IMG/VR virus record: IMGVR_UViG_3300034088_000006
Location: 1 to 32,480 of that record
DNA length: 32,480 nt
Reading direction: 5' to 3' (one strand)
Source of the DNA: a virus
Lineage: Duplodnaviria; Caudoviricetes
The first letter of the stretch is position 1, and every line of letters starts with the position of its first letter. The notes beneath the pieces are model-generated. The model made no database searches and was not told the origin of the DNA. It saw only the letters and a list, made by a program, of their open reading frames with translations. Positions 4,722 to 28,384 of this stretch are shown here, piece by piece. The position numbers and the translations under genes are program-made.

Positions 4722-5228
4722 TCAAATCCGCATAGTAGTTAAAGAAAATCCACCTGAAGAAACATTTTTAAAAAGCGGTTCTAGCAAATTGTCAACTGCC
4801 GTAATACTTAAACTGCTCAAGTCTCCAGGATTAACAGCGTATTCTGTTGACAACGGTCCAACTGTTTCTTTCTTAATAGGCGCTTCTGTAATTGTGGGCA
4901 AAATATTAACGCCGTTAAATTGCTCAATTACCAACTGAGCTAAAGCGTTTTTAAGTTCTTTCGGAATAACATTACTAGCAATAGAATAACCGTCAATTAC
5001 TAAATAATTACGAGGAAACTGCAAACATTGTAACTCAGAAACTTTTAAACCTTGAAAACGGTTTCGTTTGCTTTCGATATAATCCATTGCAATTAAAACT
5101 TGGTGCTCAATTACATTATCTGCACCTAAAGTAATTCCTCGCGCCGATGCATACGCTTTGATATACGTTAAATCTGCGTATGCATCGGCATTAGCAACGA
5201 TGGTTCCGTCTTCAACAATCAAGGTCAT
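4722..5228 (-). CDS. Head-tail adaptor (family often labelled DnaT-like)
   Basis: MTLIVEDGT...A.AY, Q.LQFPR, IP.ELKNA..QL and KKETVGPLSTEY motifs. Confidence 0.85.
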   Translation of the reverse strand: MTLIVEDGTIVANADAYADLTYIKAYASARGITLGADNVIEHQVLIAMDYIESKRNRFQGLKVSELQCLQFPRNYLVIDGYSIASNVIPKELKNALAQLVIEQFNGVNILPTITEAPIKKETVGPLSTEYAVNPGDLSSLSITAVDNLLEPLFKNVSSGGFSLTTMRI

Positions 5229-7674: not shown

Positions 7675-8190
7675 TTAACTTACTGTAACCACGCAAGTCG
7701 CGGTAATGGTTTTTCCAGTTGCATAAGTTAAAGTTGCGGTAATAGTAGAAGTTCCGGCAGCAACACCAGTAATTAAGCCGCTAGTTGCATGAACAGTTGC
7801 TTTAGTTTCATCGGAACTAACATAGCCGATATTTGCAGTAACTAAGGCAGAAGCTAAATTAGCAATATCAGTTCCACTAATCTTAACAGGATAAAGCTGT
7901 TTAGTAGCAGTGCCCACAATTGCAGCAGTTTTAGGCCAAACGTCAAAAACAAGCGGCCTAAGGGCATCAATAAATCCATATGCAGGCCGCGCATTAAAAG
8001 CTGTGGGCACGGTTCCGGCCACAAAATCAGTGGCTTCAATTCCTGCACCGAAAGAACCGCTTTCAGCACCGTTACGAACACCAATCGAATAACCGGGCAA
8101 AATTAAAGTATTCAAAACATCAATGTCCGCTAGCTCTCCGGCAGTTGGAACAGGGCCAGCGGTAAAATAAAGAATTTTCTTAGTTGCCAT
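7675..8190 (-). CDS. Capsid decoration protein with a C-terminal Ig-like (Big_2) domain
   Basis: YVSSDETKATVHATSGLITGVAAGTSTITAT...TATCVVTVS is a Big_2 signature; gene is downstream of the major capsid gene. Confidence 0.85.
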   Translation of the reverse strand: MATKKILYFTAGPVPTAGELADIDVLNTLILPGYSIGVRNGAESGSFGAGIEATDFVAGTVPTAFNARPAYGFIDALRPLVFDVWPKTAAIVGTATKQLYPVKISGTDIANLASALVTANIGYVSSDETKATVHATSGLITGVAAGTSTITATLTYATGKTITATCVVTVS

Positions 8191-12797: not shown

Positions 12798-14312
12798 CTA
12801 CGTTGCGTGTTTTAAATTAATTGAAGTAGCTAACCTATTATTTCCTTTTAAGCAACGATACCTAACCATGTCATAAGGATGATCTTCAGCGTCCGTATCA
12901 ACATCATCCGGCTTATCTGTGTCTCTCGGAAGTGTGGGCAAAGTCGCTAAAGACGCTTTGCAATTATCCATAAAATATAGTCCTGGCCCTTCATTGTCAA
13001 TCGAAGCTTTCAACCTATCACGAATAACTTGTAAACCAATAACTCGACTTCCTGAAGATTTATCACTTTCAGTCCATTTAATACCTTGCTTTGCCATTTT
13101 AACGGCTATTGATTCAACGTCAATTTCAGTTGTATTGCCAATTTGGTTATCTGCTGGCCCTGGCAATGGCTGTGAAGAAATCCAACCATTTTTCAACATT
13201 TCAATTTCAATATCAATAATGCCTTTAGCAATGTCAGTAGCAGACATTTTTAAACCTTTGTTAGTGCCAATTTTTTTAGTTCCATACCACTCATTAATTT
13301 GAATTAATGACCCAGGCTTAGGCGCAAATTTGCTACCATCAAATAAAATTACTTCTTCGCCATTAGCCTCGGCCCACCATCCAACGCTGAAAGGATGCGA
13401 TGAGCCCCAGTCAAACGATCTATCAATTCGCCAATTTTTAGGAATAGCAAAACGAGGCTTAATAATTACGTCTCGTCTCCAAACACCATCTAATGCTCCG
13501 CCTGACACAATATCCCAATTACCTTTAAGCCAAGCTTCCCTTAATACTTCATCGTTTTCTGTAAGCTTATGCAAACTAGCGATATAATCAGGATCTAAAT
13601 AAATATTTTCTTTATATGTTCCGAAAATAGTAACTTGACTTTTTGTAACAATTTCTTCTTTTTGAGTTTGCGGATTAAAAACTTCAACTTCTGTTTTAAC
13701 TACTTTACCGTAAGGTGCAACATCAATAAAACGCTCTTTAACCCAATTATGTCCAGCGCCGTGAGGATTTGAAGTTGAAAAAATTTGCAAAGGCAATTTA
13801 GGCATTAATTCAATAATGTTATCTTGCTCATCTTTAGGCGAATCTTTTTCAGGCGTAAAACTTGAACGATTGCAGGATCTAAGCATATCGTATAATTCAG
13901 AGGTAGGAAACTTAGTTAATTCATTCCAACCAATAAATGGAAATTCTTGACCATGATAATCCCAATAATCGTCTGATTTTTTTAATACTCGAAATAATAA
14001 TTCTTCACCAGTAGGCCATACCCATTTATAGTCAGCCTTTGAACTTAAAAATCTAGCACCATCGCCAAATGCTCTAAACCATCTTTTTGATTTTGCTACT
14101 AAATCATCTAAATTTTTATATTCTCTATCGAAAATAACACCGCGCCAAAAAGCACCGTAACCGATGCCCACAAATCGGCGGTATCGCATTAATTGGGTAT
14201 CTGTCTTACCAGGGCCACGATTGCCTGTAAACATGGTTTCATCGCATCGTGTATCTAATGCGAGTTCCTGACTCGTGCCTTTAATGGGCGACCAAACAAC
14301 TTTATTAACCAT
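12798..14312 (-). CDS. terL: Terminase large subunit
   Basis: Walker A-like GNRGPGKTD, Walker B-like IGWNELT, STSNPHG coupling motif, nuclease motifs FDWGSS and EDHPYDMVRY. Confidence 0.96.
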   Translation of the reverse strand: MVNKVVWSPIKGTSQELALDTRCDETMFTGNRGPGKTDTQLMRYRRFVGIGYGAFWRGVIFDREYKNLDDLVAKSKRWFRAFGDGARFLSSKADYKWVWPTGEELLFRVLKKSDDYWDYHGQEFPFIGWNELTKFPTSELYDMLRSCNRSSFTPEKDSPKDEQDNIIELMPKLPLQIFSTSNPHGAGHNWVKERFIDVAPYGKVVKTEVEVFNPQTQKEEIVTKSQVTIFGTYKENIYLDPDYIASLHKLTENDEVLREAWLKGNWDIVSGGALDGVWRRDVIIKPRFAIPKNWRIDRSFDWGSSHPFSVGWWAEANGEEVILFDGSKFAPKPGSLIQINEWYGTKKIGTNKGLKMSATDIAKGIIDIEIEMLKNGWISSQPLPGPADNQIGNTTEIDVESIAVKMAKQGIKWTESDKSSGSRVIGLQVIRDRLKASIDNEGPGLYFMDNCKASLATLPTLPRDTDKPDDVDTDAEDHPYDMVRYRCLKGNNRLATSINLKHAT

Positions 14313-19283: not shown

Positions 19284-19311
19284 ATTCTAAGCACTCAGGC
19301 TAACTTGTCAA
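19284..19311 (-). promoter_or_regulatory. Sigma70 promoter with a spacer motif variant
   Basis: TTGACA-AGTTAGCCTGAGTGCT-TAGAAT (16-bp spacer). Confidence 0.8.
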
Positions 19312-19590
19312 CTTCCAATTATCAAATTTATTAAAATCAAATTTTGTGCCACTTTCAATACAATCTTCATAATAATTTCTAAATGCTATTGCAGCTTTTC
19401 GAGTTTGCGACTCACTTACATTTTTAGAAACACGAAATTTCTTTATTGTAAATTTTCCTTTAATGGAAACTAATACGCCAAAACAAACAATTGGCGTTGC
19501 TCCCGGCCATCGCTTGTCAATTTCAATAAATCTCGAAACACCGTTCGGCAAATTTGAAGTTTTGTTTATTTGACTACTATTGCGAATCAT
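19300..19590 (-). CDS. AP2-like DNA-binding domain protein
   Basis: N...S.LP.GVS...K.F.V.....E..A...AI.FR pattern; AAGGA SD. Confidence 0.6.
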   Translation of the reverse strand: MIRNSSQINKTSNLPNGVSRFIEIDKRWPGATPIVCFGVLVSIKGKFTIKKFRVSKNVSESQTRKAAIAFRNYYEDCIESGTKFDFNKFDNWKLTS

Positions 19591-19602
19591 TAATAATTCC
19601 TT

Positions 19603-19756
19603 TTATTCATAATCAATTAAGCAATTTTGAGAATCAACTTTTGCACATTCAACATTTTGCTCACATTCTTTACAAATATAAAAACCAGATTTCATAATAT
19701 GACCGCTTTCTTTTTTTTTGCTTACAAACAATACATAAATCTTTTGTAGTCATCAT
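19603..19756 (-). pseudogene. Zinc-finger gene interrupted by a frameshift in an A9 tract
   Basis: Removing one A from 19711-19719 gives MMTTKDLCIVCKQKKESGHIMKSGFYICKECEQNVECAKVDSQNCLIDYE, which exactly fills the gap between its neighbours. Confidence 0.65.
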
Positions 19757-19929
19757 GTCACCTTTATATTCATCATTTGCAATTCAAAATCATCTGTGCA
19801 ACGTTGAACAATTTCTTTAAATAACGGAGAATAAATATTAACCAAACCTCTGCATTTAACATCTTCAAAATAAATAACTACATATTCATTAAATTTGCTA
19901 TTTTCTTGAGCAATGTAAATTTCATCCAT
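19753..19929 (-). CDS. 58-aa hypothetical protein (not in track)
   Basis: MDEIYIAQENSKF...MNIKVT; GAGGT SD; ATGA overlap with the next gene. Confidence 0.6.
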   Translation of the reverse strand: MDEIYIAQENSKFNEYVVIYFEDVKCRGLVNIYSPLFKEIVQRCTDDFELQMMNIKVT

Positions 19930-19930
19930 T

Positions 19931-20098
19931 TTAGAACCTCGGCGGAGAACTAGTCAAATGCCAATAATGGCAAAACTCACATTTATAAATCCAGAGCGTT
20001 TTGTTTCGTTTGATGCTTTCCTTTTTCATGTTTTCAAGTGCTACTTTAACACCTTTGTATTTAATCTTGTGAAAGCAAGGATACAAAGCTTCTTTCAT
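19931..20098 (-). CDS. Small zinc-binding protein
   Basis: C..K.KY...IYKCEFCHYWHLTS motif common in phages. Start more likely ATG 20098 than the track start. Confidence 0.7.
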   Translation of the reverse strand: MKEALYPCFHKIKYKGVKVALENMKKESIKRNKTLWIYKCEFCHYWHLTSSPPRF

Positions 20099-20138
20099 TC
20101 GCCTTTCTTCATTCCTTTGTTTCCTGGCATTTTTCAAT

Positions 20139-20261
20139 TCAACTCCTGATATCAAACAACTCACAATACAGAAGAATGATAGCACAGACAACACAAATAA
20201 CAATTACGCAGTTTTCTACATTATTGAATGGCTTATTAAGTCTATCCATAATTTTACTCAT
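20139..20261 (-). CDS. 40-aa membrane peptide (not in track)
   Basis: MSKIMDRLNKPFNNVENCVIVICVVCAIILLYCELFDIRS; AAGGA upstream. Confidence 0.45.
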   Translation of the reverse strand: MSKIMDRLNKPFNNVENCVIVICVVCAIILLYCELFDIRS

Positions 20262-20266
20262 AGTAT

Positions 20267-20368
20267 TTATGTTCCTTGTAAATATGCCAAATGATTAGCG
20301 AAATACCACCAAATGCAAAGCAAAACATGATAATTGCCCAGCGTTTTCAATAATCCGTCGATAGTCAC
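20267..20368 (-). CDS. 33-aa hydrophobic peptide (not in track)
   Basis: GTG start in a GTGA overlap with an AGGTG SD: MTIDGLLKTLGNYHVLLCIWWYFANHLAYLQGT. Confidence 0.4.
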   Translation of the reverse strand: MTIDGLLKTLGNYHVLLCIWWYFANHLAYLQGT

Positions 20369-20517
20369 GCTAACACCTTTCGAGCGTCCACAGTCTTTTC
20401 CAATTGTGTGAAAAAAGCAATAAATCTAGATGCAGTAATTTTGCCATCGGTAAGCATCTTTGCCATATCAACAAACGCTTGTAATTCTTCGTTTGTTAGA
20501 TCAGTGTATCGCATCAT
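20365..20517 (-). CDS. 50-aa hypothetical protein (not in track)
   Basis: MMRYTDLTNEELQAFVDMAKMLTDGKITASRFIAFF...; GAGG SD; ATGA coupling. Confidence 0.65.
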   Translation of the reverse strand: MMRYTDLTNEELQAFVDMAKMLTDGKITASRFIAFFTQLEKTVDARKVLA

Positions 20518-20642
20518 TCAGCCTCATTAATGAAGTATTCAATTTCTTCCATAGTGAAATCGCCAAGTGCTGCATAGTTGTATACAATGCAGCGGTAATA
20601 ATCGTTTAAGATTGAATTGAATGTTATACGTGCTATGTTCAT
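20514..20642 (-). CDS. 42-aa hypothetical protein (not in track)
   Basis: MNIARITFNSILNDYYRC...INEAE; ATGA overlaps at both ends. Confidence 0.6.
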   Translation of the reverse strand: MNIARITFNSILNDYYRCIVYNYAALGDFTMEEIEYFINEAE

Positions 20643-20776
20643 TCGATTGCGCCCTTTCCTTTTTCAAAACCAAGCCTAAAGGCTTCATAAATAAGACCGA
20701 TTGTAAAACCAGCAACAATATACGGACTTAAAGCAACAAAAAACAAAAAATTTACAATGTTGTCTGATGTTTTCAT
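20639..20776 (-). CDS. 45-aa single-TM protein (not in track)
   Basis: MKTSDNIVNFLFFVALSPYIVAGFTIGLIYEAFRLGFEKGKGAIE; AAGGA SD. Confidence 0.65.
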   Translation of the reverse strand: MKTSDNIVNFLFFVALSPYIVAGFTIGLIYEAFRLGFEKGKGAIE

Positions 20777-20825
20777 GTTTTCCTTTCTAAATATATTATG
20801 CAATTTTTATCGCGTCTTATTATAC

Positions 20826-20845
20826 TTACTTCATGTTGCACCTCC
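20826..20845 (-). other. Met-Lys-stop minigene with a perfect SD
   Basis: GGAGGT-gcaac-ATG AAG TAA, directly downstream of a consensus promoter. Confidence 0.6.
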
Positions 20846-20861
20846 GATATTCAATATCAAC

Positions 20862-20889
20862 AGTATAGAATGTTAGCCGGAGTTGTCAA
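20862..20889 (-). promoter_or_regulatory. Sigma70 promoter with the spacer motif
   Basis: TTGACA-ACTCCGGCTAACATTC-TATACT. Confidence 0.85.
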
Positions 20890-20901
20890 GAGAAAAATAA
20901 A

Positions 20902-21039
20902 TTATTCTTCATCGTCAATTTGCAGTCCAGGATTTAAAATATCATAGCAACAATTACAATATTCCTTGCTATTTAAATCATTGCCAAATACAAATATAAT
21001 AATTCCACAGCGTTTGCAATACGATGCTTTGTAACCCAT
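20902..21039 (-). CDS. 45-aa zinc-ribbon protein (not in track)
   Basis: GGAGGT SD; MGYKASYCKRCGII...EYCNCCYDILNPGLQIDDEE. Confidence 0.75.
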   Translation of the reverse strand: MGYKASYCKRCGIIIFVFGNDLNSKEYCNCCYDILNPGLQIDDEE

Positions 21040-21058
21040 GTCTTACCTCCACGCAACA

Positions 21059-21087
21059 AGGATACATTAACCGGCTAACTCTGTCAA
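21059..21087 (-). promoter_or_regulatory. Sigma70 promoter with the spacer motif inverted
   Basis: TTGACA-GAGTTAGCCGGTTAATG-TATCCT (17-bp spacer). Confidence 0.8.
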
Positions 21088-21106
21088 GTGCAAATTCAAA
21101 TATTTT

Positions 21107-21283
21107 TCAATCTCCCTTATATGGCAAATTAGGATGCCAATCTCCATAAGCATAAAATCCAACCGTTCGACCAAATCTATCATGATATTCAATTTCAGCG
21201 GGAATATTAGAACCCGCATAAGCTGTAATATGTTCTGTTAGAGTTCCCCATTTAATCCATTGCCAAATCTTTTTAATAAGCAT
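21107..21283 (-). CDS. 58-aa hypothetical protein (not in track)
   Basis: MLIKKIWQWIKWG...AEIEYHDRFGRTVGFYAYGDWHPNLPYKGD; AAGGGT SD. Confidence 0.7.
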   Translation of the reverse strand: MLIKKIWQWIKWGTLTEHITAYAGSNIPAEIEYHDRFGRTVGFYAYGDWHPNLPYKGD

Positions 21284-21335
21284 AAATTACCCTTTCAAGG
21301 TTACATAATGACCATTATCGAAAGTTACGTTAAAT

Positions 21336-21521
21336 TCAGTTGCAATTAATATGCCTTAAAGCTTCTTTTTCAAAAATCCAAAGGCTTAATTTATAACAAT
21401 AATCGTTTTTATCTTTAATATTAAAACATATGAATCTAAGATAAGTATTTAAATCAGAATAACAAACGCGATTAACCGCTATGTTGTGTTTAGTTTTATA
21501 CGGTTTGTCCAAATATCTCAT
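21336..21521 (-). CDS. Hypothetical protein
   Basis: Start ATG 21521 after AAGGT. Confidence 0.55.
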   Translation of the reverse strand: MRYLDKPYKTKHNIAVNRVCYSDLNTYLRFICFNIKDKNDYCYKLSLWIFEKEALRHINCN

Positions 21522-21560
21522 AAATAAACCTTTCAAATAATGCCCACAAACTAGCTTGCA

Positions 21561-22148
21561 TCAATCGCCGAAGATGCCTTTCAGGCTTTGCGCAGCCGCC
21601 GATAGCGGGGCCTCGGCATCGCTGGAAGGTGCCAAGGCGGCTTCCTGGGGCTTTGGAGCTAGCACAGTGGCAACCTCGGCACCATAGCCGCTGGCGATCA
21701 AGAAACGCTCCGCAGCTTTGGCTTTGAATTGCATAAGCAAAGGCTGAAAGTTAACTTCTTCTGTTTGCTTTCGTTTTGATACTTTTGAATTTTTATTTTC
21801 ACTTCCACTTCTGCATTCTTTACAGGTTCCGCCATTACGCTGAATTAAATTAGTAACCGCAATGTCTTTTATATTTCCACAATCACAAGCACAGCGATAA
21901 TAAGCGATATTTTTTCTGTTTTCCAAACGTTCTAAAACATTCCAAGTTCCGTAACGTTTATTTAACTGTTTTGTTACTTCTTTATTACATTCGCAAATAT
22001 AACTATCGTTTAAAAATGCTCTTACTTCAATTTCGTTGTATTTACCGCAAGAACAACAAACAATAATATACTTTGGATCATTTCGTATTGCATTAACTCC
22101 AATTGCCCACAAATTGCCTCGATTTTGGCCGATTATACTGGTTATCAT
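21561..22148 (-). CDS. Cys-rich protein with tandem homing-endonuclease-type N-terminal repeats
   Basis: Two G...G.(L/W)....C.C.CG repeats (e.g. KRYGTWNVLE...YYRCACDCGN); no HNH motif seen; Ala/Pro-rich tail. Confidence 0.7.
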   Translation of the reverse strand: MITSIIGQNRGNLWAIGVNAIRNDPKYIIVCCSCGKYNEIEVRAFLNDSYICECNKEVTKQLNKRYGTWNVLERLENRKNIAYYRCACDCGNIKDIAVTNLIQRNGGTCKECRSGSENKNSKVSKRKQTEEVNFQPLLMQFKAKAAERFLIASGYGAEVATVLAPKPQEAALAPSSDAEAPLSAAAQSLKGIFGD

Positions 22149-22181
22149 GTTCTGCGCTCCGTGTCATAAGTGACAGCCTCA

Positions 22182-22209
22182 ATTATACGATTGTTTTATC
22201 AATTGTCAA
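22182..22209 (-). promoter_or_regulatory. Consensus sigma70 promoter
   Basis: TTGACA-N16-TATAAT; leader hairpin TGTCA-N4-TGACA at 22162-22175. Confidence 0.85.
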
Positions 22210-22670
22210 CCTTTTTTATATTAATTTATACTTGCTTAACATACTTTATACTTGTTTATCATAATTAATTAAACTATATAATATAAATATAATATATATA
22301 ATAAATATATAATATATAAAAGACTGATAAATATGGAGTATAACAAGTATAACAGTCTAACGGAAAGAAGCTACTTTTTGATATGATAATTTATCACTTT
22401 ATCATATCAATTTTTATGATAATGATAATGGTTTTATCATATCATTATCTTACACTTTCTTACCTTTGTTCTATTATACTTTTTAAGTCCAATTATTTTA
22501 ACACTTAGCCGTTAGACAACTGTTATACTCCGTTATTTTTGTTTCTGCCAATTTTGATAAAGTCCTATATCATTTTTACTATCATAATCAAAAAAGACCG
22601 TATAAAAGCATAGCAAGTATAATTTTATTATAACTTTTTTATGCTAATGAATCGTCTAACGGAAGACAAA
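22210..22670. repeat. AT-rich non-coding region with iterons and inverted repeats (candidate replication origin)
   Basis: A/T-only tract at about 22275-22321; GTCTAACGG x3; (C/G)AGTATAA-type repeats; 12-bp inverted repeat at 22378-22410. Confidence 0.6.
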
Positions 22671-22841
22671 GGGTTGCCGATTGAGCCTCGAAAACAGTTT
22701 GATAAGGAATTGATAAGCGGCCATGAAGACGCCTACAAACGCTGCGTTCGGTGCTGCAAAGCACAGCGGCTTTAACAGCCCAGTTTGTGGGCACGCCACG
22801 CCAGAAAGCTAGCAAACGCTGCGTGTCGCACAGGAATAATA

Positions 22842-22866
22842 AAAAGCCGCTGGTTAGGCGGCTTTT
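22842..22866. terminator. Bidirectional intrinsic terminator
   Basis: AAAAGCCGC-N7-GCGGCTTTT. Confidence 0.85.
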
Positions 22867-22884
22867 GGGATTGATGAAGGATTA

Positions 22885-23325
22885 TTAAGATTCGGTAATG
22901 CAATATTTGATTTTAAAATAACTTCTTAACGGTGTATTGTTAATTTCAGCTTCTGTCATTTTAATAGCCGATTCAATTTTTACTATTCTTCCGCTTGAAG
23001 CAAAATCAATAACATCTTTTGCTTCTTTTAGACTACTGTTTGTAATAATTCGCAGTTCTCTAATTGCATCCAATTTGTTTTGGATAGGTTCTTTTACAAG
23101 TAATTCCCAGTATTTAAATTTAGGTTCTGATTCGACAAAACGCATAATACAATTTTGAATGATGTTTTTACCAAAAACGCAAATAGAACCATCTTCTAGT
23201 TCAAATTGAAACTTATCAATTTGATTCAAATTTTCATAAAAAACATTTGCGCATTCTTGAATTGTTTTATTGAATGTTTGCTTTGTTTTCCAAACCTTAC
23301 CTTGATATTCAATTTCCGTATGCAT
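22885..23325 (-). CDS. Protein with a ribosomal L7/L12 C-terminal-like motif
   Basis: Start ATG 23325 with an AAGGA SD; NKLDAIRELRIITNSSLKEAKDVID. Confidence 0.7.
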   Translation of the reverse strand: MHTEIEYQGKVWKTKQTFNKTIQECANVFYENLNQIDKFQFELEDGSICVFGKNIIQNCIMRFVESEPKFKYWELLVKEPIQNKLDAIRELRIITNSSLKEAKDVIDFASSGRIVKIESAIKMTEAEINNTPLRSYFKIKYCITES

Positions 23326-23326
23326 A

Positions 23327-23518
23327 TTATTTTCCTTCACAAGTGGCATTCGATAATGCCACGGGTTTAAAAACATATTCAGAAAAGAAATCAATATTTT
23401 CCTTTGCTTCATCAATCATATGTTCCTTCAAGATTGAAGTGCAAGGCTTTAGGGATTCAATTTCAGCCGCGCTTACTGCGCAGGCTATTAGAATGTTATT
23501 TAATTTGGAATGTTGCAT
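23327..23518 (-). CDS. Hypothetical protein
   Basis: Start ATG 23518 (MQHSK) with an AAGGA SD. Confidence 0.6.
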   Translation of the reverse strand: MQHSKLNNILIACAVSAAEIESLKPCTSILKEHMIDEAKENIDFFSEYVFKPVALSNATCEGK

Positions 23519-23519
23519 G

Positions 23520-23729
23520 TTATTTTCCTTTAGTTGCTTTTTCAGCTTCTTTAAAACTTTCCCAAGAATCATTAAAATCATTTACCATACAATCGTTTAC
23601 TAAATTTTTAAGTAAAAGTTTATATTTTGCAATCATTCTTACACCTTTCCAATCAGAATTTTTCATTTTATTTATATTCCAATTTAGTTCTTTTATAACA
23701 TCTATTTCTGTTTGTTCTAATTCGTTCAT
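23520..23729 (-). CDS. Hypothetical early protein
   Basis: Start ATG 23729 (MNELEQ) with a GGAGGT SD, first gene after a promoter. Confidence 0.7.
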   Translation of the reverse strand: MNELEQTEIDVIKELNWNINKMKNSDWKGVRMIAKYKLLLKNLVNDCMVNDFNDSWESFKEAEKATKGK

Positions 23730-23750
23730 TGTGTTACCTCCATACCAACC

Positions 23751-23778
23751 ATTATAGCCCATAGTTAGCCGGAGTCAA
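23751..23778 (-). promoter_or_regulatory. Sigma70 promoter with the spacer motif
   Basis: TTGACT-CCGGCTAACTATGGGC-TATAAT. Confidence 0.85.
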
Positions 23779-23832
23779 TAGCAATTCAAAAATATTTTTC
23801 AGAAATCGCAAGTCAAAGCAATTCATCAATCA

Positions 23833-23896
23833 AGAAAAAGGGCCGGGAACAACGTTCCACCGGCCCAAGGCAGTCCGAGCCCCGACAAACTGCCTT
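23833..23896 (-). ncRNA. Candidate small RNA 2 (hairpin plus terminator)
   Basis: Stem AAGGCAGT/ACTGCCTT, then GGGCCGG..GAAC/GTTCCCGGCCC-TTTTT; weak promoter TTGACG-N17-CAAGCT upstream. Confidence 0.45.
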
Positions 23897-23934
23897 AGTG
23901 ACAGCTTGGGTATCTTGCTAGGCTGCGTCAAGGC

Positions 23935-24016
23935 AAAGAAAAGCCGGGAAGTCTCTCAAGCTTCCCGGCTCCCAGCCTCGGCTAGCACTTCCGCGTGTGC
24001 TACCGTTCCTTGCGAA
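23935..24016 (-). ncRNA. Candidate small RNA 1 (hairpin plus terminator; also ends the prim-pol operon)
   Basis: TTGAAA-N16-CATAAT at 24050-24023; stem CGGTAGCAC/GTGCTAGCCG; perfect 10-bp terminator stem AGCCGGGAAG/CTTCCCGGCT-TTTCTTT. Confidence 0.45.
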
Positions 24017-24061
24017 GATAGAATTATGAACCGCACAAACAAATTTTCAAGTCATGCAAAT

Positions 24062-24292
24062 TTAATGCCAAATCATTTGATTTTCTACTTCGTGAACGTG
24101 ACCGCATTTTTTACAAAACATATAAGCGTCACCTTCTGCGTTTTCTTCGCTTATTCTAGAGCAAGTATAATTCCAAGTTCCACAATTATGGCAAAAGGTC
24201 AAATTTACAAACACTTCTTCTAAAGTTTTATTAATATTTGAAGGTTTTAGGTTATATTTAAGTTTCTTAAAACCTTCAATGTATGGCTTCAT
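24062..24292 (-). CDS. Zinc-ribbon protein
   Basis: Start ATG 24292 in an ATGA overlap with the primase stop; CHNCG and CKKCG. Confidence 0.7.
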   Translation of the reverse strand: MKPYIEGFKKLKYNLKPSNINKTLEEVFVNLTFCHNCGTWNYTCSRISEENAEGDAYMFCKKCGHVHEVENQMIWH

Positions 24293-28211: not shown

Positions 28212-28298
28212 GCGAGGATGGCGGAATTGGTAGACGCCACAGACTTAAAATCTGTTGATCTTAGGATCGTGCCGGTTCGATCCCGGTTCCTCGCACCA
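28212..28298 (+). tRNA. tRNA-Leu (anticodon UAA)
   Basis: Acceptor stem GCGAGGA/TCCTCGC, anticodon arm ACAGA-CTTAAAA-TCTGT, long variable arm, GGTTCGATCC, encoded CCA. Confidence 0.96.
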
Positions 28299-28307
28299 CT
28301 TTTGAAA

Positions 28308-28384
28308 GCGTCTTTAGCTCAATTGGTCAGAGCATCGCCCTTTTAAGGCGGGGGTTTCGAGTTCAAATCTCGAAAGACGCACCA
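28308..28384 (+). tRNA. tRNA-Lys (anticodon UUU)
   Basis: Acceptor stem GCGTCTT/AAGACGC, D arm AGCTCAATTGGTCAGAGC, anticodon arm TCGCC-CTTTTAA-GGCGG, GTTCAAATC, encoded CCA. Confidence 0.95.

Follow-up and report, generated by a model that had tools for sequence, protein, structure and literature searches.

To our knowledge, only a handful of two-codon leader minigenes are known. The significance of such minigenes was called unclear in the report on the LEE1 leader of EHEC, in which the minigene AUG AAA UAG is translated and acts in cis, its loss halving the expression of ler (Islam et al., PMC3262186). According to this report the effect depends on spacing, a distance of 124 nt being stimulatory and one of 29 nt inhibitory in a construct, and the lysine codon is present in all LEE carriers. 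The minigene mg2 of axe-txe and the six-codon mini-ORF of LEE4 are described as cis-acting, as proposed shields against RNase E, and as not toxic in trans (PMC8708949). In phage lambda, the bar minigenes AUG AUA UAA encode Met-Ile on a rare codon and are reported to be toxic in Pth-deficient cells (PMC8012679, PMC2490762). In the 5' stabiliser Shine-Dalgarno (SD) elements, such as the cryIIIA STAB-SD and the ermC leader, a bound ribosome is described as protecting the message with no need for a start codon (PMC3997798), and upstream ribosome binding sites are reported to be common in bacteria (PMC13285730).

The minigene analysed here is carried by a window of 32,480 nucleotides (the whole stretch of DNA under study), which represents 32.5 kb of a tailed phage of about 43 kb from sediment metagenomes. 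Matches to PHROGs corresponded to head, tail, primase, Sak4, Cas4-like exonuclease and helicase genes, and the best matches of the primase among cultured phages were in Pseudomonas siphophages (46–48%). The minigene is located on the minus strand, downstream of the primase gene, among small ORFs without known family. Its parts and the neighbouring features are listed below, together with their state in the relative L124.

20884..20889, minus strand: -35 hexamer TTGACA, identical at 6/6 positions in L124
20872..20880, minus strand: spacer motif CCGGCTAAC, a candidate operator, found again in two other promoter-like sites, at 23778 and, in inverted orientation, at 21087
20862..20867, minus strand: -10 hexamer TATACT; L124 has TACATT at that position
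20840..20845, minus strand: Shine-Dalgarno GGAGGT, 5 nt 5' of the ATG; GGGGGT in L124, likewise with a 5-nt spacing
20826..20834, minus strand: two-codon minigene ATG AAG TAA (Met-Lys-stop); ATG AAG TAG in L124, at 7787-7795
20777..20825, minus strand: AT-rich unstructured spacer of 49 nt, with the SD of the next gene at its end; leader fold z = +0.71
20639..20776, minus strand: first ORF downstream, 45 aa in length, containing a hydrophobic stretch and without a family, at the head of several small ORFs in a row (20642-20514, 20517-20365 and onward)
28308..28384, plus strand: tRNA-Lys(UUU), on the strand opposite to the minigene and 7.4 kb away, with no link to the minigene found
28212..28298, plus strand: tRNA-Leu(UAA), given for context and not judged part of the element

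From 20889 to 20826 the minus strand is organised as TTGACA-16-TATACT-16-GGAGGT-5-ATG AAG TAA, and the stop is followed by GTA TAA TAA. The two promoter hexamers agree with the consensus at 11 of 12 positions. The near-consensus promoter, the perfect SD, the 5-nt spacing and the Met-Lys-stop reading frame had all been listed in the initial annotation of this DNA, and each was found again in the sequence at its position. A start, one sense codon, a stop and a properly spaced SD, the features of the cis-acting leader class at the sequence level, are present. The minigene exists as a single copy in the window, with no terminator behind it. A contig crossed the site in four of eight sequencing runs (X1, X6, X7 and X8, all of them 2020 sediment runs, perhaps from one campaign, X1 being possibly the source of the record) with zero differences from the window, and the site was without coverage in the low-share runs X11 and X12. 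The identity of the four covering runs rules out an assembly slip as the origin of the minigene. The full promoter-SD-minigene pattern, which had been tailored to the site, occurred in none of 100 shuffled sequences. The bare combination of an SD and ATG NNN stop was found in 48 of 100, so that it is the promoter context and the conservation which carry the case. In Rfam, 3-kb loci around three minigenes gave only one tRNA and one chance-level match, with no match over the leader itself.

Conservation could be evaluated in L124 (IMG/VR contig 3300044712_000322), which is syntenic with the window, with a primase 70% identical and gene blocks 69–81% identical at the nucleotide level. At the syntenic place, 7732-7795, L124 reads TTGACA-16-TACATT-16-GGGGGT-5-ATG AAG TAG. 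In an ungapped comparison anchored on the -35 hexamer, five of the six SD positions and eight of the nine minigene positions were identical, the sole change in the minigene replacing one stop codon by another, versus a background of 29 identical positions out of 77 (38%) in the promoter-side spacers, the SD-ATG spacer and the 40 nt downstream. Signals and spacing were kept while the spacers diverged, and the element therefore looks selected, as judged from two copies. Selection on a translation signal appears to be the simplest reading of this comparison; for a conservation of lysine itself, two copies are weak evidence. The minigene is real and has probably been selected. A full-length gene at this place in relatives had been named earlier as the observation that would speak for a deletion scar. 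L124, the sole close relative found, has kept the minigene instead. Conservation was observed in the one close relative which has the region (1/1) and, by a strict test, in none of 78 distant family loci. Four protein-based scans of IMG/VR returned only the window phage and L124 above 54%, no DNA match to 19300-24100 existed among 50,697 records of cultured phages, and for the neighbouring HNH-like protein two closer homologues (85% and 78%) were present in Logan contigs only.

Downstream of the minigene the two phages are organised differently. In the window, a distance of 49 nt separates the minigene stop from the start of the next SD-led gene. Its 45-aa product is weakly similar to that of an ORF of 38 aa in L124 (9/33 identical, E 2e-4). 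In L124, the next SD-led gene lies 177 nt on and the first gene is not that of the window. This gene is placed behind a strong, long hairpin at 7893-7950 (z -4.28) with a U-rich tail, possibly an attenuator or a processing site. On the minus strand of the window, no terminator-like site was present between 22842 and 17468, and the minigene is therefore predicted to open a polycistronic message. It would occupy the 5' leader, in the terminator-free stretch from the consensus promoter to the first gene.

Two other features of the region were seen in both phages. The 176-aa ORF at 22885-23415 on the minus strand of the window shows a weak match, below the cut-off, to the C-terminal domain of ribosomal protein L7/L12 (PF00542, E 9e-5), and by eye it has an apparent counterpart at 5202-5642 in L124. 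A very AT-rich near-palindromic repeat, at 22270-22330 in the window and 6150-6210 in L124, is a candidate replication origin and is located in the window upstream of a perfect promoter at 22209.

The promoter of the minigene belongs to a set. The window contains exactly three copies of CCGGCTAAC, each located in a promoter-like site, within its spacer (23778, 21087 in inverted orientation, and 20889); two copies are directly behind TTGAC, compared with none in 100 shuffles. The sites at 23778 and 21087 are followed by GGAGGT and then by ORFs of 69 and 45 aa. Early promoter-like sites sharing a spacer motif, CCGGCTAAC or GTTAG..., were noted at 23778, 21087, 20889 and 19311 on the minus strand of the window and at 4800, 7502, 7732 and 9267 in L124. 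The shared motif is likely the operator of a phage regulator. A scan of IMG/VR for spacer motifs of the CCGGCTAAC type gave 102 matches, with no comparable cassette outside the window phage, and the search for a 14-bp palindromic operator gave one match each, not above chance (57/100 and 63/200 shuffles).

In the primase family, 80 loci contained a total of 87 cassettes composed of a promoter, an SD and an ATG. They head ORFs of at least 30 aa in 82 cases and of 7–26 aa in three, and the only two with fewer than 6 aa are the Met-Lys-stop minigenes of the window phage and L124. The median gap from the -10 hexamer to the SD is 17 nt in these cassettes, and in 2 of 71 cassettes of the normal kind the second residue is lysine. 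Near the primase gene in L175, L202, L211 and other loci of the family, promoter-SD-small ORF cassettes also form arrays with as many as about ten members, which constitute a family trait.

The occurrence of similar leaders elsewhere was investigated with the strict pattern promoter, GGRGGT, 5 nt, ATG NNN TAR, which was run on IMG/VR, metagenomes and GTDB. In the three collections 54 matches were intergenic, and 28 of them had an SD-led gene of at least 35 aa within 200 nt. The next gene started 43–58 nt past the minigene stop in 14 of these 28, a range which was picked after seeing the data and which includes the window but not L124. The 14 matches are not independent, as three are one Met-Asp family and seven precede solute-binding or similar lipoproteins. 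In the controls, this range was observed for 6 of 27 matches inside long ORFs and for none of eight promoter matches without SD; it was also observed for none of three weaker-SD matches, from a scan with 120 of about 1800 matches listed. A fresh test was performed on all 202 genomes of the order of G006 (Dehalococcoidales), using an SD, ATG NNN stop and then a second SD, with distances bounded by the pattern. The arrangement was found 26 times (twice with a stop as the middle codon), compared with 4 times when ACG replaced ATG, 11 times with three codons (five of these look by eye like one coding-sequence family) and 5 times with the reversed pattern. The next gene could be tested for 24 of the 26, and in 16 it encoded a solute-binding protein of one of five Pfam families (DctP 6, Peripla_BP_6 5, OpuAC 3, SBP_bac_5 1 and TctC 1). 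The middle codons were varied, with AGA in 7 and AAG in 3 of the 26.

The number of codons was also variable. Start-stop and two-codon forms were about equal (11 and 9, counted by eye among 150 matches listed of 216), and five test genomes had 7 one-codon, 10 two-codon (including 5 seeds) and 6 three-codon forms, with no length preference. The equal frequency of these forms suggests that two codons as such may not matter. When the stop was not required in the pattern, two codons were found in 3 of 31 ORFs, at 30 loci of 42 matches, which is too few to judge. What the class seems to have in common is a strong SD followed by a very short ORF, of which neither the codon nor the exact length is fixed.

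Several groups of loci were observed in the course of these scans. An SD with a two-codon minigene, often ATG AGA stop, is located about 43–65 nt upstream of solute-binding genes of five unrelated families in L534 and L552-L576 (Dehalococcoidales) and in L351, L407, L408, L410, L412, L423 and L436. In contigs of Clostridia and Erysipelotrichaceae (L366, L414, L425, L433, L456, L458 and L488), a conserved promoter-17-SD-ATG GAT TAA (Met-Asp-stop) leader precedes by 44–47 nt a membrane-anchored protein of about 105 aa. In L396 and L446, a promoter and an SD are followed by ATG AAA stop, which lies upstream of thyX (48 nt) and of pyrF (51 nt), respectively. In the 48.5-kb phage G001 (L132 1501-1565), ATG AAG TAA is followed at 58 nt by an ORF of 131 aa and at about 500 nt by a tRNA-Trp gene (2068-2140).

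On balance, the conserved Met-Lys-stop minigene likely acts in cis, a ribosome held at the 5' end of the early message protecting it and setting the expression of the genes downstream. The initial annotation had offered a ribosome-loading leader for the downstream gene as its second idea, and this is the best-supported reading, given the position at the head of a small-gene run, the 49 nt to the next gene, the recurring layout and the LEE1 precedent. We propose that the SD and ATG would load a ribosome about 20 nt from the predicted 5' end of the transcript, and that this ribosome would terminate at once and then reload. The bound ribosome would either shield the AU-rich leader from nucleases or hand over ribosomes, and would in this way tune the genes behind. 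It is possible that the minigene derives from the truncated gene of an ordinary cassette and was later kept. The anatomy, the head-of-run position, the conservation in one relative and the membership of the promoter-SD-ATG cassettes are directly observed, and from them we infer transcription, initiation at the ATG, nuclease protection or ribosome hand-over, and the downstream effect.

The element is probably a phage instance of the already known type of cis-acting leader minigene. As described for LEE1, it is a two-codon Met-Lys-stop with its own SD, at the head of an operon shortly behind a promoter (sigma-70 in LEE1), with a conserved lysine codon. It differs in belonging to a phage and not to a bacterial pathogenicity island, in using AAG and not AAA, and in its distance of 49 nt (177 nt in L124) and not 124 nt (PMC3262186). 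The phage element is known here from its sequence, and no homology of sequence with LEE1 is claimed. With mg2 and the LEE4 mini-ORF it shares an SD-led mini-ORF in an AU-rich leader, but mg2 is described as Met-Thr-stop inside the antitoxin gene, near enough for coupling, and the phage element lies at the predicted 5' end of a transcript (PMC8708949). Like lambda bar, it is a two-codon phage ORF with the anatomy for peptidyl-tRNA drop-off; unlike it, it does not encode Met-Ile on a rare codon, and the bar accounts, in the parts relevant here, mention no paired phage tRNA (PMC8012679, PMC2490762). The strong SD near the 5' end recalls the stabiliser elements, which are reported to need neither start nor stop (PMC3997798), while the phage element conserves both.

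Four other explanations were weighed. In the first, which we regard as unlikely, the minigene is a functionless scar: an ordinary promoter-SD-small gene cassette would have lost its frame in the common ancestor, by a one-base deletion or a larger loss, only the promoter being still used. The geometry of the cassette is indeed normal for the family, and the window and L124 have different genes behind their cassettes. The further in-frame stops had been taken earlier as an argument against a longer broken gene. This stands for a nonsense mutation, which is excluded, but not for a frameshift, since 18 codons can be read in the +2 frame before its stop, which overlaps the ATG of the next gene. A comparable open frame to the next ATG was present in 12.5% of base shuffles, and in L124 the +2 frame closes after four codons. 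The survival of the SD, the spacing, the ATG, the AAG and the stop amid spacers of such low identity also argues against a scar. Programmed frameshifting or read-through was considered separately and rejected because neither alternative frame is open in both phages.

The second explanation, which seems improbable, is that of a lysyl-tRNA sensor, where a ribosome would stall on AAG when the tRNA-Lys of the host runs short or is cleaved by an anticodon nuclease, altering the early genes behind. The nucleases AriB and PrrC are reported to target tRNA-Lys(UUU) (PMC12409363), and a lysine codon is kept in all LEE1 minigenes (PMC3262186). In IMG/VR, the strict pattern gave 10 matches, of which 6 were distinct and 3 had AAG: the window, L124 and the unrelated phage G001. 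The latter is complete (terminal repeats), shows zero tblastn matches to 27 window proteins, and carries its Met-Lys-stop behind its one perfect-consensus promoter; no relatives of it were found with one query protein. Among strong-SD minigenes in the 78 distant family loci, 2 of 10 were ATG AAG TGA versus a background of 1.3% (post hoc p 0.008). One of them, in L178, lies in the post-primase gene run, but its upstream promoter is weak; the other, in L186, is absent from its relative L190. A hairpin follows the minigene in L178 as it does in L124, but the window leader has no structure to switch. No lysine bias was apparent in the metagenomes, where 76 of 93 matches were distinct and AAG (3, one being G001 again) and AAA (4) made up 7 of the 76, or in GTDB, with 50 matches, 49 distinct, and lysine in 4 of the 49 (AAG 2, AAA 2). 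In these two scans no middle codon was dominant and no lysine preference was found, the weak excess of AAG being confined to the phage-only sets. A scan restricted to R-A-N codons gave lysine in 12 of 17 matches with SD and in 35 of 94 without (111 distinct among 120 matches listed of about 1800). This was not taken as support, as the pattern admitted R-A-N codons alone and the same excess would come from recoded or broken genes. If the sensor were true, the minigene would be a phage version, tuned to lysine, of an SD-Met-(X)-stop leader that is widespread but has been overlooked, and that lies some 50 nt upstream of genes both in phages and in several bacterial groups. As a separate observation, the long hairpin after Met-Lys-stop in L178 (about 13231-13320, z -2.28) is possibly an attenuator or a processing site.

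It is very improbable that the conserved ATGAAGTA is an untranslated site bound by a protein on DNA or RNA. Its eight identical bases would also fit a binding site, and the same promoters bear another short conserved motif, but ATGAAGTA lies exactly 5 nt behind the SD in both phages, where the sister cassettes start their genes, and the single change preserves the stop codon.

The last explanation is the main proposal of the initial annotation, according to which the minigene drains lysyl-tRNA through drop-off of fMet-Lys-tRNA and the phage tRNA-Lys rescues phage translation. The tRNA-Lys(UUU) noted at 28308 was confirmed, and the phage encodes in addition the protein with the weak L7/L12 match. 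A strong SD, two codons and a UAA stop are reported to make minigenes toxic (PMC8708949) and all are present in the window; lambda bar is described as working in this way in Pth-deficient cells (PMC8012679). However, the stop in L124 is UAG, which is reported to be less toxic than UAA, and the axe-txe minigene had the toxic features yet was non-toxic (PMC8708949). No Pth match existed among 55 ORFs of the window, which is all but about 10.6 kb of the genome, and the single copy with no terminator behind it also speaks against a takeover. Drop-off would presumably trap the phage tRNA as readily as that of the host and, as lysine is abundant in the phage (536 of the 7268 codons of 26 window genes), a sink for lysyl-tRNA would be harmful to it. 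The tRNAs are more simply explained by codon use, AAA and TTA being the third and fifth commonest codons and matching both phage tRNA anticodons. Of the 78 distant family loci, 20 have tRNAs near the primase gene (Leu-UAA 7, Gln-UUG 10, Met 8, Lys 0), and the contig of L124 stops slightly before the tRNA site. Phage tRNAs are reported to serve codon compensation or escape from anticodon nucleases (PMC10264068; PMC12409363), either of which would account for the tRNA-Lys(UUU) with no need of the minigene. The tRNA-Lys of the phage carries G39 and C41, at positions relevant to AriB, since changes at 39 and 41 are reported to keep this PARIS nuclease from cleaving tRNA-Lys from E. coli (PMC12409363). 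With a Met-Lys-stop in the complete phage G001, whose sole tRNA is tRNA-Trp, and a middle codon not biased towards lysine, the takeover is not supported and is the least probable of these explanations.

A search of open-access full text revealed no description of a Met-Lys-stop leader conserved in phages, of the pairing of a minigene with a tRNA encoded by a phage, or of the leaders that precede solute-binding genes in Dehalococcoidales. The findings have two wider consequences. The phage copy, kept over approximately 30% divergence with only its stop codon changed, constitutes a clean natural test of the role of the lysine codon. The wider SD-Met-X-stop layout, seen about 45–60 nt upstream of genes both in unrelated phages and in Dehalococcoidales, may matter more than the phage minigene; if it holds up, it would be a common unannotated expression element which merits a census of its own.
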